A program made the translations under genes and the position numbers. A DNA stretch of 64,000 bases from Candidatus Eiseniibacteriota bacterium (lineage in GTDB: Bacteria; Eisenbacteria; RBG-16-71-46). The notes below the pieces were generated by a model. It was given only the letters and a program-made list of their open reading frames with translations. It made no database searches and was not told the DNA's origin. This document shows, piece by piece, positions 7,794 through 13,739 of this stretch (position 1 is the stretch's first letter; every line of letters begins with the position of its first letter). The DNA is taken from contig CAVQXP010000002.1 in assembly GCA_963717935.1 (NCBI GenBank), positions 224,001 to 288,000 on the forward strand, written 5' to 3'.

Positions 7794-8043
7794 GCCCGGT
7801 TCCGCGCGGCCGGGCTTCAGCCCGGCTGCGCGCCGCCCGCCCCGGGCGGGCCGCCAGCGCCCCACTCGCATCCCATCGACTCAGGCTGTAGTCTGACGCG
7901 CGCGTGAGCCCTGCGCGGGGGACCGGTCCCGGCCGGCCCGCGTGCGACGATGCGCCCCGGCGCGACCCGCGCGGCGCCCACCCGGGAGGCGGGGCCGGGG
8001 TCCCGCGAGCACGGTCCGCACGAACCCGCACCAAGGAGCCCCT

Positions 8044-10575
8044 GTGTCGCCCAGCAGCCCCCGCACGAAGCGCCGCCCGCCCGCGAAGCCGGAGTCCGCC
8101 CCGGCCGGGGCTCCCGCGAAGAAGAAGCCCGGGCCGGGCCCGGCGCTCGTGGTCACCCGCGGGGAGGAGACCTTCCAGGTTCGCGACCGCCTGCCGCTGC
8201 TGCCGCTGCGCGACGTCGTCGTGTTCCCCTCGATGACCATCCCGCTGCTGGTGGGGCGGCTGCCTTCCATCAGCGCGCTCGAGAAGGCCGTGGCGCGTGA
8301 CCGGTTGCTGTTCGTCACGGCGCAGACGCGCAGCGAGGTGGCCGATCCGACTCACGAGGAGCTCTACCCGGTGGGCACGCTGGCGCGCGTGCTCCAGCTC
8401 TTTCGTCTGCCCGACGGCACCATGCGGGTGCTGGTCGAGGGCCTGGTCCGCTGCCGTGCCCGGCGCTTCCTCTGGTCGAACGACTACTTCACGGTGAAGC
8501 TCGCGCTCGTGCCCGAGGCTCCGCCGGCTGGCGGGCCGGAACTGGAGGCGGCCCAGCGGCACGTATTGGGGCAGTTCAACGACTACGTGCACCTGAACCG
8601 GCGCATCCCTGACGAGGTCCTCACCACCGCCAGCGCCCTGACCGACCCGATGGCCCTGAGCTACACGCTCGCGGCGCACCTGCTGGTCAAGGTCTCGCAG
8701 AAGCAGCGGCTGCTCGAGGCTGCGGGCCCGGCCGAGCGGCTGCGCCTGCTGGGCGAGATGCTGGGAGCGGAGCTGGAGATCCTCAAGCTCGAGCGCAAGA
8801 TCGAGGGGCAGGTCCGCTCGCAGGTACACCGCAATCAGAAGGAGTTCTATCTCAACGAGCAGCTCAAGGCGATCCGCAAGGAGCTCGGCCACCAGAACGA
8901 GTTCGCCAGCGAGATCGACGATCTGAGCGTGGCCATCCGCAAGGCCCGCCTGCCGCGCGAGGTGCTGGCGAAGGCGATGAAGGAGCTGGACCGCCTCTCC
9001 AAGATGAGCTTCATGTCGCCCGAGGCGACGGTGGTGCGCAACTACCTGGACTGGCTGGTGTCGCTGCCCTGGGCCAGGGCCTCCCGCGACCAGAGCGACA
9101 TGGCGAAGGTCGAGAGCATCCTCGACGAAGACCACTTCGGACTGCAGAAGGTGAAGGAGCGCATCGTCGAGTATCTGGCGGTGCTCAAGCTGACGAAGAA
9201 GAACAAGGGCCCCATCCTGTGTCTGGTGGGGCCGCCGGGGGTGGGCAAGACCTCGCTTGGCCGCTCGATCGCACGGGCGCTCTCGCGCCGTTTCGTGCGC
9301 GTCGCGCTCGGTGGCGTGCGCGACGAGGCCGAGATCCGGGGGCACCGGCGCACCTACATCGGCTCGCTGCCGGGACGCGTCATCCAGAGCATCCGCCGGG
9401 CGGGCACGCGGAACCCGGTATTCCTGCTCGACGAGATCGACAAGCTCGGCGCCGATTTCCGCGGCGACCCCGCCTCGGCGCTGCTCGAGGTGCTGGATCC
9501 CGAGCAGAACCACACCTTCAACGACCACTACCTCGAAGTGGACTTCGACCTCTCGCAGGTGATGTTCATCTGCACGGCCAACTCCCAGCACTCGATCCCG
9601 CCGGCGCTCGTGGACCGCATGGAAACCCTCCGGCTGCCGTCCTATCACGAGAGCGAGAAGGTGCAGATCGCGCGGCGCTTCCTCATTCCCAAGCAGATCA
9701 AGGCGGCCGGACTCGAGCCCGCCAACCTGCAGATCGCCGCGCCGGCGCTGGCCGCGCTCATCCGCAGCTACACGCGCGAGGCCGGTGTGCGGAATCTGGA
9801 GCGCGAGATCGCCGGGCTGTGCCGCAAGGCGGCCAGGCGCAAGGCGGCGGGCCAGCTGGAGGGGGCGATGAACGTCACGCTCTCCAACCTGCACCGCTTC
9901 CTGGGGCCGCCCAAGTACATCGACCTGGCGGTGGAGCGCGTGGACCGGGTGGGCCTCGCGAACGGCCTGGCCTGGACCGAGGCGGGGGGCGACGTGCTCA
10001 CGATCGAGGTCAGCATCCTGCCCGGCAAGGGCGAGCTGCAGCTCACCGGGAAGCTGGGCGAGGTGATGCGCGAGTCCGCGCACGCGGCGCTCACCTGGAT
10101 CCGCTCCCGCGCCGAGCGCCTGGGACTCGACAAGCACTTCCACCGCGAGGTCGACGTGCACGTGCACGTGCCCGAGGGAGCCACGCCCAAGGACGGCCCT
10201 TCCGCCGGCATCTCGATCGCCCTGGCGATGGTGAGCGCGCTCACCGGCATCCCGACGCGGCACGAGGTCGCCATGACCGGCGAGATCACGCTGCGCGGGA
10301 ACGTCATCGCCGTGGGCGGCCTCACCGAGAAATCGCTGGCCGCCCGGCGCGCCGGTCTCGAGGTGATGCTGCTGCCCCGGTCGAACGAGAAGGACATCGC
10401 GGAGATGCCCGAGGAGGTGCGGGAGGGGCTCGAGCTCGTGCTGGTCGAGAGCATGGACCAGGTCCTCGATCGGGCGCTCGAACGCAAGGTCGAGCCGCGC
10501 ACCGCCGCGCCGCCGCCGCCGGCCGCGCCCGTCGTGAAACCACAGGAGGAGGGGCCGGCGGAGTACGCGCACTGA
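8044..10575 (+). CDS. lon: Lon (La) protease
   Basis: LPLLPLRD N-domain, GPPGVGKTS, RGHRRTYIG and catalytic PKDGPSAG; AAGGAG before the GTG at 8044. Confidence 0.96.
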   Translation: MSPSSPRTKRRPPAKPESAPAGAPAKKKPGPGPALVVTRGEETFQVRDRLPLLPLRDVVVFPSMTIPLLVGRLPSISALEKAVARDRLLFVTAQTRSEVADPTHEELYPVGTLARVLQLFRLPDGTMRVLVEGLVRCRARRFLWSNDYFTVKLALVPEAPPAGGPELEAAQRHVLGQFNDYVHLNRRIPDEVLTTASALTDPMALSYTLAAHLLVKVSQKQRLLEAAGPAERLRLLGEMLGAELEILKLERKIEGQVRSQVHRNQKEFYLNEQLKAIRKELGHQNEFASEIDDLSVAIRKARLPREVLAKAMKELDRLSKMSFMSPEATVVRNYLDWLVSLPWARASRDQSDMAKVESILDEDHFGLQKVKERIVEYLAVLKLTKKNKGPILCLVGPPGVGKTSLGRSIARALSRRFVRVALGGVRDEAEIRGHRRTYIGSLPGRVIQSIRRAGTRNPVFLLDEIDKLGADFRGDPASALLEVLDPEQNHTFNDHYLEVDFDLSQVMFICTANSQHSIPPALVDRMETLRLPSYHESEKVQIARRFLIPKQIKAAGLEPANLQIAAPALAALIRSYTREAGVRNLEREIAGLCRKAARRKAAGQLEGAMNVTLSNLHRFLGPPKYIDLAVERVDRVGLANGLAWTEAGGDVLTIEVSILPGKGELQLTGKLGEVMRESAHAALTWIRSRAERLGLDKHFHREVDVHVHVPEGATPKDGPSAGISIALAMVSALTGIPTRHEVAMTGEITLRGNVIAVGGLTEKSLAARRAGLEVMLLPRSNEKDIAEMPEEVREGLELVLVESMDQVLDRALERKVEPRTAAPPPPAAPVVKPQEEGPAEYAH

Positions 10576-10603
10576 GATACCGTCTGGTTCATCAAGCGGT
10601 TTT

Positions 10604-11788
10604 TCATGCCGTCGCCTCCGCAGGATGGAGGATGGGGACAAACGGCTGCCGGCGCCGGGCCACGCTGTGGACGGCGCCGAGCAGCTTGTGCATGCAGGCG
10701 ACGAGCGCGACCTTGGGCAGCTTGCCGCGAGCGCGCAGGCGTTCGTAGTAGGCCTTGAGCCACGGGTTCTTCTGCACTGCGGTCAGGGTCGGCATCCAGA
10801 GGGCCTTGCGCAGCCGGGCGTTGCCGATCGAGGAGCAGCCTGCGCGTCGCGGCTGGTGTTTGCCCGACTGTTTGAGGGCAGGCACGACACCGACGTAGGC
10901 CGCCAGCGTTGCGGGCGAGTGGAAGTCGGCCGGGTTGCCGACCTCGGCGATGATGCGGGCGGCCGTGGTCGGGCCGATGCCATCGATGGTCGTGAGCAGC
11001 GTCCCGACCTCGTGCTCTGCGAGCGTGCACTCGATGTCGCCATCGATCTCGCGCAGGCGGCGGCGCAGCAGGTCCATGTCCTCGCAGCAGTGGTGAACCT
11101 GCAGGCGGTACGGAGGGCCGTGGAAGTGCCCGACCGAGACCCGCGCGGCCTCAATCAGGACCTTCGCGAGTTCGGGGCCCACGACGTGATGCCCGTCGTA
11201 ACGCAGGCGCGCGAGCCGCCCTGGCGCGAGGCCGTGGAACGCCTCGGCCGTGGGGTACTCATGCAGGATCGTGGTTGCCAACGCGCTGTCGAGGCTGTGC
11301 ACGTGACGGGTGAACTCGGGGAACCCCAGGTCCACCAGCCGGTGCAACTGGCGGGTGCGATCGCCGAAGTCCTGTACCAGCCGGTCACGGTGGCGCACGA
11401 GCTCGCGCAGTTCGTCCGTCGCGCGGTCGGGCAGCCGCGTCGCCGCCGGGTGCTTCTGTGACGCAAAGCGGGCGATATTCAGCGCGTCGACCGCGTCGGT
11501 CTTGGTGCGCTCGAGTTCCTCCTGCGCGAACCGGCTCGTCCGCCGCGGGTTCAGCAACGCAATCGCGAAGCCCTCACCGGCGAGCATCGCAAACAGGTTC
11601 TTCCAGTAGTGCCCGGTTGCCTCCATCGCCACCAGCGTGTCGGTGCTGGCCCCCAGCAACTCGCGCATCCGCGCGTAGCCCGCGGCGTCCTCGGCACACT
11701 TCGCGGCGCTCCGCAGCACCGCGCCGGCCTCATCCACGATGGCCACCACGTGCTGCTCCGAGCCGATGTCGATCCCCACGTAACGCAT
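10604..11788 (-). CDS. IS110-family DEDD recombinase/transposase
   Basis: Motifs YVGIDIG, MEATG, KTDAVDA, LTTIDGIG, AYVGVVP..KQSG (catalytic Ser) and GNARLR; TAAGGAG RBS. Confidence 0.95.
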   Translation of the reverse strand: MRYVGIDIGSEQHVVAIVDEAGAVLRSAAKCAEDAAGYARMRELLGASTDTLVAMEATGHYWKNLFAMLAGEGFAIALLNPRRTSRFAQEELERTKTDAVDALNIARFASQKHPAATRLPDRATDELRELVRHRDRLVQDFGDRTRQLHRLVDLGFPEFTRHVHSLDSALATTILHEYPTAEAFHGLAPGRLARLRYDGHHVVGPELAKVLIEAARVSVGHFHGPPYRLQVHHCCEDMDLLRRRLREIDGDIECTLAEHEVGTLLTTIDGIGPTTAARIIAEVGNPADFHSPATLAAYVGVVPALKQSGKHQPRRAGCSSIGNARLRKALWMPTLTAVQKNPWLKAYYERLRARGKLPKVALVACMHKLLGAVHSVARRRQPFVPILHPAEATA

Positions 11789-11825
11789 GCCCGTACTCCT
11801 TACCGACGGGAGTCCCCGGGAGCCT

Positions 11826-12008
11826 CGGAGCCGATGGCCCTGCTCGCGCTTGTGCATGCGAGGACCAGGCCTCTCGATACCGTTCGAGCCCTGACCATCG
11901 GTCGAGGGCGCCGATCTCAGTGACGAGGACAGAGCCTCAGCCCGCGCGGCCCGGCGCCCCTCTCCCGAACCCCGTCCCCGGGAGCCTACCCCCGCCCGAG
12001 GAGCCCGT
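11826..12008 (-). ncRNA. Putative IS110 bridge RNA (5' hairpin, target-binding loop, donor-binding loop); ends approximate
   Basis: Stems at 11962-67/11979-84, 11906-13/11952-59 and 11831-39/11893-901. Each large loop holds a GAGG-N6-CCTC hairpin. Loop segments match the donor (11876-83, 11849-53) and the right target flank (11916-22). Confidence 0.78.
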
Positions 12009-12027
12009 GTGGAGGTGATACAAGCGA

Positions 12028-12096
12028 CGGGCCCTCTCGGGGCAGCAGGGCGAGCAGAGGCACCGTGCGCTCGCCCTGCTGCCCCGAGAGGGCCCG
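12028..12096. repeat. Perfect 28-bp inverted repeat with a 13-nt loop (REP-like element or original lon terminator)
   Basis: 12028-12055 is the exact reverse complement of 12069-12096. Confidence 0.85.
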
Positions 12097-12129
12097 CGGA
12101 CAGTGATGAGCGCCGGAGGCCGGTCCGTC

Positions 12130-12368
12130 ATGAAAGTCCTCGTCGCCGAGTCGCTCGACCCCGCCGGCCTCGCGCGCCTGCGCGACGCGGGGCACGAGGT
12201 CGTGGAACGCGCGGGCCTCGCGGGCCGCGCGCTCGCCGAGGCGCTGCGCGACATGCAGGCGCTGGTCGTGCGGGGCGACACGCGGGTGACCGAGGAGGCG
12301 CTGCGCGGCGCGCCGCGCTCGAAGCCGCGGCGATCGTGGTCGAGACGCTGGCGCGGCCGCGAGGCTGA
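12130..12368 (+). pseudogene. Internally deleted, frameshifted D-2-hydroxyacid (SerA-like) dehydrogenase remnant
   Basis: MKVLVAESLDPAG...ALVVRGDTRVTEEALRGAPR, then in another frame LEAAAIVVETLARPRG-stop; no NAD-binding domain. Confidence 0.7.
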
Positions 12369-12464
12369 ACGCGGTCCGGGCCGCCTGCGCGCCCACGCCG
12401 CGGTTTGTCGCCTTCACGACCGTCTGCTAGCGTGCCGCGCGGTCCGATCGCAAGGAGGCTCGGG

Positions 12465-13739
12465 ATGCCGTGCACCGTGGTCGTCGGCGCTCAGTGGGGC
12501 GACGAGGGCAAAGGCAAGATCGTCGACGCGTTGAGCGCCGCCGCCGACATCGTCGCTCGCTACCAGGGTGGCCCCAACGCCGGGCACAGCGTCGTCCGGG
12601 CGGGGCGGACCCTCGTGCTTCACCTGGTGCCCTCCGGCGTCATGCACGACGGCCGGCGCTGCCTCATCGGCAACGGCGTGGTCGTGGACCTCCAGAGCCT
12701 GCGCGAGGAGGTCGAGCGGCTCGAGGCCCTCGGCCTCGACGTGAGCCCCCGGCTCGGCGTGAGCACCGCCGCCCATCTCATCCTGCCGCAGCACCGCGCG
12801 GTCGAAGCCTTCGCCGAGGCCGGTGCCGGCGCGATCGGTACGACCGGGCGCGGCATCGGCTTCGCCTACCGCGACAAGGCCGCGCGCACCGGGCTGCGGG
12901 TCGGCGACCTGTTCGAGCCGGCCCGCTTCGTCGCCGCGGTGGACCGCAACCTGGAGCGCCTGCGCCTGGAGTTCCCCGCGGTCGGAGCGCTCGCCTCGAT
13001 GAGCGGCGCGGGGCTGCTGGCCGAGTGGCGCGAAGTCGCCGCCTGGCTCGAACCCCTGGTGTGCGACGTCTCCGCCGAGTTGCACGCCGCCCTCAAGGCC
13101 GGCAGGCATGTCCTGCTCGAGGGCGCGCAGGGCACGCTCCTCGACCTGGACCACGGCACCTATCCCTACGTGACCTCCTCGCCCGCGAGCGCGGCCGGCG
13201 CGCCGCTGGGCGTGGGGCTGGGACCCCGCGTCGTGGACCGCGTGATCGGCGTGACCAAGGCGTACACCACGCGCGTGGGGCACGGGCCGTTCCCCAGCGA
13301 GATGCCCGAGGCGGAGGCCGGGCGGTTGCGCGAGGCGGGGGAGGAGTATGGCGCGACCACCGGGCGGCCACGGCGCTGCGGCTGGCTCGACCTGCCGGCG
13401 CTGCGCTACGCGGCGCGCGTGAACGGGCTCGACGCGCTGGTGGTCACGAAGCTCGACGTGCTGGACGGCTTCGAGGAGATCCGCGTCGTCGTCGGCTACG
13501 AGCGCGACGGACGCCCGGTGGAGGGTTTCCCGGCCGGGGCGGGCGCGCTCGAGCGCTGCCGGCCGGTGTGGCGCGGTTTCCCGGGCTGGCGGGCACCCAC
13601 GACCGCGGCCCGGCGCTGGGCGGACCTGCCGGCCCGCGCCCACGAGTACCTGGAGTGGATCGAGCGCGAGAGCGGCGTGCCCATCGCCTCCGTCTCGGTC
13701 GGGCCGGAGCGCGAGGCCGAGGTCCAACGGGTGCGTTGA
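12465..13739 (+). CDS. purA: Adenylosuccinate synthetase
   Basis: Motifs GAQWGDEGKGK, GGPNAGH, IGTTGRGIG, EGAQGTLLD.DHGTYPYVTSS, TTGRPRRCGW and TKLD. Confidence 0.97.
   Translation: MPCTVVVGAQWGDEGKGKIVDALSAAADIVARYQGGPNAGHSVVRAGRTLVLHLVPSGVMHDGRRCLIGNGVVVDLQSLREEVERLEALGLDVSPRLGVSTAAHLILPQHRAVEAFAEAGAGAIGTTGRGIGFAYRDKAARTGLRVGDLFEPARFVAAVDRNLERLRLEFPAVGALASMSGAGLLAEWREVAAWLEPLVCDVSAELHAALKAGRHVLLEGAQGTLLDLDHGTYPYVTSSPASAAGAPLGVGLGPRVVDRVIGVTKAYTTRVGHGPFPSEMPEAEAGRLREAGEEYGATTGRPRRCGWLDLPALRYAARVNGLDALVVTKLDVLDGFEEIRVVVGYERDGRPVEGFPAGAGALERCRPVWRGFPGWRAPTTAARRWADLPARAHEYLEWIERESGVPIASVSVGPEREAEVQRVR

Follow-up and report, generated by a model that had tools for sequence, protein, structure and literature searches.

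A GC-rich IS110-group element inserted just past lon in a Candidatus Eiseniibacteriota genome, with bridge RNA guides that match its own ends and the right side of its target

The 64-kb stretch of DNA analyzed here (the window: positions 224,001 to 288,000 of contig CAVQXP010000002.1, assembly GCA_963717935.1, from a Candidatus Eiseniibacteriota bacterium) carries an insertion sequence (IS) of the IS110 group that is GC-rich and adds a new member to the IS621-type bridge recombinases, a kind already described. The element occupies 10575-12024 of the minus strand and is 1450 bp long if the CT core copy is counted at each junction. We consider it probable that this is an intact element that works like IS621, and that the present copy entered its site by a natural half-match insertion, in which the right half of the target was matched, beside a hairpin resembling a repetitive extragenic palindrome (REP) and past the stop codon of lon. 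The boundaries of the element, the family of its protein, the structure of its RNA and the matches between its guides and the DNA were all observed.

Results

On the minus strand, the left junction of the element reads CCCGTCG (12031-12025), CT (12024-12023) and TGTAT (12022-12018), and the right junction reads ACGGTAT (10583-10577), CT (10576-10575) and CAGTG (10574-10570). An earlier note on this DNA, made from the letters alone, had derived a donor and an empty target from these strings by joining them at the CT core, and the strings are indeed found at those coordinates. Its suggestion that the flanks of other genomic copies be compared came to nothing, as the element is the sole copy in the assembly (3.0 Mb in 5 contigs, 93% complete), and for that reason an empty site was sought in place of a second copy. 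Such a site, which the note had also proposed to look for, exists in contig C49 of the same-genus genome G005, where CCCGCCG-CT-CAGTG has a single CT joining both flanks (more widely, in the orientation of the element, ...GGAGGGCCCGCCG-CT-CAGTGGGCG...). Positions 687-1364 of that contig match the last 675 nt of lon (95% identity), and positions 396-684, which are 2 nt from the lon match, match the left flank of the element (89% identity). The CT core is thus present at both junctions of the element and once in the empty site, which fixes both ends and the core and shows that this was a simple insertion. No terminal inverted repeat joining the element ends was seen among the 25 longest of the 34 inverted pairs.

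The left target flank in the host DNA is CCCGTCG (12025-12031, minus strand), with CCCGCCG at the equivalent place in G005. The right target flank, CAGTG (10570-10574, minus strand), overlaps the stop codon of the gene for Lon protease (7942-10575, plus strand; Lon_C 1.7e-84, LON_substr_bdg 3.1e-43, AAA 2.4e-24). The CT at which the element inserted lies immediately past that stop, and the TGA (10573-10575) was kept. For the host this was an ordinary IS insertion that left lon intact.

The recombinase gene of the element (10604-11788, minus strand) encodes a protein of 394 amino acids that starts MRYVGIDIG. The protein matches PF01548 (DEDD_Tnp_IS110) over positions 1-155 of 155 (5e-38) and PF02371 (Transposase_20) at 3.3e-27. 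The four acidic residues of the N-terminal RuvC-like DEDD domain are present, as is the C-terminal Tnp domain with its catalytic serine: D7, E56, D98, D101 and S308 align to D11, E60, D102, D105 and S241, which are named as the catalytic residues of IS621 (Hiraizumi et al., 2024; PMC11208158). The matches among solved structures are ISCro4 (PDB 9t56, 1.1e-32) and IS621 (8wt6, 7.3e-31). A longer open reading frame (ORF) beginning at 11857 was ruled out as the gene because relatives of 394 amino acids align from MRYVGIDIG; these span 99-100% of the recombinase, with up to 93% identity. An unrelated second IS110-family DEDD domain (86 bits) was seen at G000:C3:120274-120696, where contig C3 ends and truncates it.

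Upstream of this gene, at 11821-11966 of the minus strand, lies the core of the bridge RNA, consisting of a closing helix, a target-binding loop and a donor-binding loop. Two scans for the family confirmed at least 533 of 603 and at least 561 of 594 candidate stretches as relatives, and 80 loci were kept from each; by their record titles the family loci come from Myxococcota, Binatia, Burkholderiales, Acetobacteraceae, Planctomycetota and others. Alignment of the present copy with 77 non-redundant relatives (78 sequences) yielded 41 consensus pairs, which make up six helices; the fold runs from the closing helix through a stem whose large internal loop is accompanied by an inner hairpin, GAGG...CCUC, and then through a long connecting helix, to a second stem like the first. 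In the alignment 97.1% of the consensus pairs are paired, versus 41.6-49.4% when the partners are slid by 1-3 columns. Changes on both sides occur in 23 of the 41 pairs, and none of 500 shuffles reached the observed value on any measure. Both inner GAGG-N6-CCTC hairpins that had been noted earlier are present, one in the target loop (GAGG-CUCUGU-CCUC, 11925-11938, minus strand; helix 3, with AU/GC exchanges) and the other in the donor loop (GAGG-CCUGGU-CCUC, 11860-11873, minus strand; helix 6).

A covariance-model check, which the earlier note had put forward, agrees with this structure. Model R1, built from 42 relatives and excluding the present copy and its two closest relatives, has a single full-length match in the window, at 11821-11966 of the minus strand (137.9 bits, E 1.6e-25). 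The same single match is obtained across the genome, and among the genomes of 40 relatives the model matches G010 only (the 40 genomes searched include the unpublished G026, on which no claim here depends). Every RNA column that is invariant in the family is kept in the present copy. Rfam 15 contains no family for this RNA, and the only hits were to sub-threshold microRNA models on the flanking palindrome. A conserved 21-nt string of the RNA family had no occurrence in the part of the PMC11208160 supplementary files that was covered, which is no proof of its absence from them.

In IS621 the core is part of every guide; left guides carry top-strand sequence, and right guides carry its complement (Durrant et al., 2024; PMC11208160). 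Read in this way, the donor loop of the present RNA matches the element's own ends. The left donor guide ACGGUAUC (11876-11883, minus strand; ACGGTATC as DNA) has the same sequence as the right end, ACGGTAT, followed by the core C. The right donor guide ACAAG (11853-11849) is complementary to the CT and TGT of the left end, and with the handshake CG (11848-11847) it makes up 11847-11853 of the minus strand; this handshake fits the CG that forms the last two bases of the real left target. In relatives, variants of the left donor guide covary with the element ends, for example in L005, L007 and L011. When joined, the ends form the donor ACGGTATCTTGTAT, which is one base in 14 off the IS621 donor ACAGTATCTTGTAT printed in the methods of PMC13396178, the very difference that the earlier note had stated. 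The element also has a -35-like hexamer, TTGATG, at its right end (10590-10595, minus strand) and a -10-like hexamer, TATCAC, at its left end (12015-12020, minus strand). At the junction of a circle they would form TTGATG-N17-TATCAC; this arrangement is a pattern of sequence and no more, and its strict form recurs in 36 of the 62 family loci with both ends.

Could the element be an inactive relic, with its non-coding left end conserved without an RNA function in this host? We regard this as extremely improbable. The element is single-copy, and a search of 7 other same-genus genomes did not find it, which would suit a relic, but its ORF is of full length with all catalytic residues present, its RNA keeps each conserved pair, both of its ends match the donor loop exactly, and identical pieces of 150-245 nt are present in three runs of sediment metagenomes (X1-X3), which belong to two studies. 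These pieces are short contigs of low depth that cover 11174-11458 and 11662-11903 of the window; one of the two studies is of freshwater and the other is marine. The exact 23-nt left-end pattern had no match in the metagenome contigs.

The target loop fits the right side only. Its right guide, CACUGAG (11922-11916), is complementary to CT plus CAGTG at 7 of 7 positions, as had been noted earlier, and with the handshake AU (11915-11914) it makes up 11914-11922 of the minus strand. This handshake fits donor positions 6-7 (AT), as in IS621, for which such a handshake arrangement has been reported (PMC11208158). The guide strings of the earlier note (ACGGTATC at 11883-11876, ACAAG at 11853-11849 and CACTGAG at 11922-11916) all lie where it had placed them. 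On the 5' side of the target loop (loop strand 11952-11939), the family register puts the left target guide at 11939-11947 of the minus strand, where it reads GCGCGGGCU, that is, GCGCGGG plus CU. This guide matches the real flank, CCCGTCG, at 2 of 7 positions (position -1 and one distal base), plus both bases of the CT, and it matches the flank CCCGCCG of G005 likewise at 2 of 7. Two of seven is the mode of the permuted distribution, i.e., chance level. The earlier note was therefore right that the left match is poor, but the string that it took for the guide, GGCCGCGC, lies at 11951-11944 and not at 11950-11943, and its estimate of about 4 of 8 gives way to 2 of 7. A left guide shifted by one base (4/7) was rejected because the CT core is then lost.

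The 5' strand of the target loop is 3 nt longer in the present copy than the family norm. A 15-nt stretch at the 3' end of the recombinase gene (10651-10665) is 93% complementary to 11944-11958, which belongs to the same 5' strand and includes part of the left guide; this complementarity may be due to chance in DNA with 70% G+C.

Does the IS621 guide code hold in the family to which this element belongs? A target loop was found by pattern in 104 of the 141 loci, and removal of duplicates left 67 rows for the right guide, 81 for the left guide and 81 for the handshake. For the right guide, the frequency of a match to the right flank is 1.0, 1.0, 0.97, 0.90 and 0.93 at positions +1 to +5 and 0.31 at +6; the CT core is required by the right-guide search and hence is not evidence. 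Over positions +3 to +6 the mean number of matches is 3.10, versus 1.23 when permuted (maximum 1.63 in 1000). For the left guide the match to the left flank climbs from 0.30 at -7 to 0.84 at -1, with a mean of 4.0 of 7 versus 2.42 when permuted (maximum 2.83 in 1000), and there are two or fewer matches in 17 of the 81 loci, a few of these owing to the register rule. The first handshake base of the donor loop is complementary to position -1 of the left target in 70 of 81 loci (permuted mean 44.3, maximum 57 in 2000 permutations). These matches lead us to conclude that the IS621 code holds in the subfamily, where the right arm is strong and the left arm graded. The failure of the left guide to match its flank in the present copy concerns a single insertion event and not the layout, since the family as a whole does show that match. 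Judged from these sequences, weak matching on the left characterizes the subfamily as a whole, which goes beyond what the earlier note had said.

Loose use of the left arm in nature finds support in a relative that is present in multiple copies in G010, whose genome belongs to the same bacterial family. The loci of this relative (L207-L224) break the assembly at 8 left and 10 right junctions, which lie on separate contigs and cannot be paired. All 8 left junctions go with an identical left guide, TGGCGTG-CU; all that 7 of the 8 flanks share before the CT is GTG, and the eighth has GCG. The guide predicts CACAG on the right, and the right junctions have CACCG (7), CACAG (1), CACGG (1) and one aberrant sequence. 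The CACCG flanks reflect either a systematic mismatch at +4 or a master copy that was not assembled and that has another guide.

Two further observations were made among the family loci. L012, on a contig of a metagenome-assembled genome from Gammaproteobacteria, has the opposite half-match: its left guide matches at 7 of 7 positions (9/9 with the core), and its right flank, CATTGG, misfits a right guide that predicts CACAGC and equals the flank of L052 and L024, whose guides do fit. L034 and L045 have GT rather than CT at the left junction, matching a GU at the core position of the left guide, and CT at the right junction, from which it follows that the two junctions can hold different core dinucleotides.

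What chose the site past lon? The genome contains 317,605 CT sites and only 62 CTCAGTG sites, which places the right-arm match far from chance (about 2 in 10,000). Among these 62 sites, 30 fit the left guide better (at least 3 matches), one of them at 6 of 7 positions, and this last site is empty. That better-fitting CTCAGTG sites exist elsewhere means that left pairing did not choose the insertion site. The perfect predicted target, GCGCGGG-CT-CAGTG, has no exact occurrence in the genome and 7 occurrences within one mismatch.

Directly left of the target, in the host DNA, stands a REP-like palindrome of 59 nt (12033-12091) with weak hits to microRNA models on both strands. Its apex, GCGAGCAGAGGCACC(A/G)TGCGCTCGC, is common to 26 long hairpins in the genome, the copy in the window included, and the stems of these hairpins, of 20-25 bp, vary between copies and remain self-complementary. 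A conserved loop with covarying stems suggests that there is selection on the hairpin itself. Other copies lie, for example, at C4:207206, C4:648102 and C4:1562689; several are found just past gene ends, and the hairpin also occurs in the same-genus genomes G004 and G005.

It is feasible that the hairpin had a part in the choice of site and that it replaced the pairing of the left guide, the site then being set by right-side pairing together with DNA structure, in a stronger form of the dual-match logic of ISPpu10. Upstream of the core, the 75 nt have a folding energy of -74.4 kcal/mol, a value that none of the 62 CTCAGTG sites reaches (mean -28.9, minimum -72.9), IS110 elements favor REP sequences, and a 5' stem-loop raises insertion by ISPpu10 (10.64898/2026.03.19.712850). 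The test of the hairpin is post hoc and concerns one event, however, and the next strongest fold (-72.9) belongs to a second site with both hairpin and CTCAGTG, at C1 +102083, which is empty. In the family, no significant excess of hairpins was found beside the left target: the 60 nt by the core are more stable than the control window in 37 of 68 cases (Wilcoxon p 0.095). In addition, the stem-loop of ISPpu10 was unable to replace key pairing (10.64898/2026.03.19.712850). On this evidence we think it improbable that the hairpin stood in for the left guide.

Beyond the hairpin, between it and purA, a short ORF at 12103-12534 (plus strand) matches a 2-hydroxyacid dehydrogenase domain over its first 61 positions only (1.5e-5) and is possibly a gene remnant. 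In genome G007, purA directly follows lon.

Discussion

The presence of both protein domains, the aligned catalytic residues, the covarying two-loop RNA, the donor loop that reads the element's own ends and the CT cores all point to an IS621-type system, as the earlier note had proposed. Its description of an intact element at an imperfect target also stands, given the full-length ORF and a target loop that fits the right side only. The mechanism that we infer, from RNA expression and circle formation to activity and the order of events, would be as follows. As in IS621, the element would excise as a circle with the junction ACGGTAT-CT-TGTAT, and the junction would assemble the TTGATG-N17-TATCAC promoter, which in turn would drive a bridge RNA of about 200 nt and the DEDD/Ser recombinase. 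The donor loop would pair with the element's own ends and the target loop with a host site around a CT core. In the present case the element entered the CT just past the lon stop, its right guide matching perfectly (the core plus 5 nt) and its left guide, close to the core, matching just the CT and a single base beside it. We read the targeting of the subfamily, on the strength of the guide and flank comparisons, as dominated by the right side and by the core-proximal bases of the left.

Is the left mismatch a record of the mechanism or of later history? If the insertion was fully matched originally, and the left target guide was changed afterwards by mutation or by exchange of the loop, then the mismatch would say nothing about how the site was chosen. 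Guides do differ among close relatives: L124, with 89% amino acid identity, has UGGCCGG-CU, and L126 (84%) has another loop, from which we conclude that left guides turn over fast; the 3 extra nt in the 5' loop strand could mark a recent indel. Against such a history, 5 of 7 positions would have to have been altered while the ORF, the right guide and the invariant columns of the RNA were left untouched, there is no second genomic copy that could have been the donor of a loop, and the handshake CG of the donor loop continues to fit the flank as it is today. No decay is seen elsewhere in the element, which makes a later change of five guide bases less likely, and overall we judge this explanation to be unlikely. 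For a half-match at the time of insertion, two preprints make the case plausible. In IS621 the core and one matching arm sufficed for insertion in vitro (10.64898/2026.08.31.748434), and in ISPpu10 distal mismatches of the left guide were tolerated while the right guide was stringent (10.64898/2026.03.19.712850).

Several points weigh against a natural insertion guided by the right half. With a single copy, a poor left match at the time of insertion and a later change of the guide cannot be separated. In ISPpu10 the loss of left pairs at several positions abolished recombination (10.64898/2026.03.19.712850). Among the family loci a match is found in 73% at position -2 and in 67% at -3, and the match of one in three core-proximal bases in the present copy is unusually poor by comparison. 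The family test has weaknesses of its own: the 37 loci in which the pattern found no target loop were dropped, the register rule misplaces a few left guides (e.g., L034, L045 and L170), and the family flanks come mostly from metagenome bins, in which contigs are often broken at IS ends. Among the sequencing runs listed for the element none is of RNA, and neither element junction, nor the empty site, nor the circle junction is spanned by a contig of the four DNA runs, which yielded short pieces only. Finally, the two-loop fold of the earlier note, which covariation and the covariance model bear out, does not emerge from the sequence by itself: the single-sequence fold is no better than that of shuffles (z 0.05), and the minimum-energy structure differs from the two-loop fold. 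Since the single-sequence fold is uninformative, the two-loop structure rests on comparative evidence.

A bolder suggestion, which we offer tentatively and hold to be somewhat doubtful, is that the whole subfamily is right-arm-dominant, with the 7-nt right guide and the CT core setting the address, the left guide contributing no more than 1-3 core-proximal pairs, and a hairpin able to stand in for left pairing. The present copy would then be the fossil of a natural insertion directed by the right target (RT) only. If this is true, it belongs to an RT-only class of event that could not be scored for IS621, whose native right guide is too short.

Bridge recombinases are under development as programmable tools for genome writing, and their off-target rules are an open question. 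The element contributes an orthologue that is GC-rich and has directly readable guides, and it belongs to a large subfamily that extends across many bacterial phyla. Together with its relative in G010, the present copy provides natural data on the minimal pairing of the left arm, which bear on the half-match model of off-target insertion.

Comparison with known systems

The IS1111 group, with its seekRNA systems, belongs to the same protein family and also uses a bispecific guide RNA, which in that group lies downstream of the recombinase gene. In the present element the RNA is upstream of the gene, as in the IS110 group. ISAzs32 was considered as a named relative and rejected, as the RuvC-domain sequence given for it in Supplementary Table 1 of PMC11208160 does not resemble the present family. 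The best solved relative by sequence is the ISCro4 transposase, which has the same two domains and was compared by protein only.

With IS621 of E. coli the element shares a two-domain DEDD/Ser recombinase with aligned catalytic residues, an RNA that lies 5' of the gene with the target loop followed by the donor loop, the same guide senses and a CT core (PMC11208160), the handshake AU in the target loop (PMC11208158) and a donor that is identical at all but one base (PMC13396178). It differs in that the proteins are distant (phmmer E 7e-31), with 394 amino acids here and 328 residues in the solved chain of IS621, in its GC-rich sequence, and in the extra closing helix and the long helix between the loops of its RNA. 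The natural matching of the left side is loose here, and the natural right guide is 7 nt long whereas that of IS621 has 4 nt (PMC11208160).

ISPpu10 of P. putida, like the present element, inserts beside a GC-rich REP stem-loop, and its left guide is tolerant distally and its right guide stringent (10.64898/2026.03.19.712850), which is the same asymmetry that we measured in the present subfamily. The two part company close to the core, where the adjacent left position is strictly needed in ISPpu10 (10.64898/2026.03.19.712850), whereas here one of three core-proximal bases pairs. The half-match study of IS621 likewise found the core and one arm to be enough in vitro, a right-target half-site included, although it used a cell-free system and re-analyzed E. 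coli data (10.64898/2026.08.31.748434). RT-only events were unscorable in that study because the native right guide of IS621 has 4 nt. The 7-nt right guide of the present element makes a natural event of this kind legible, and the chief interest of the element is that it offers right-arm-only targeting in a natural and legible case.

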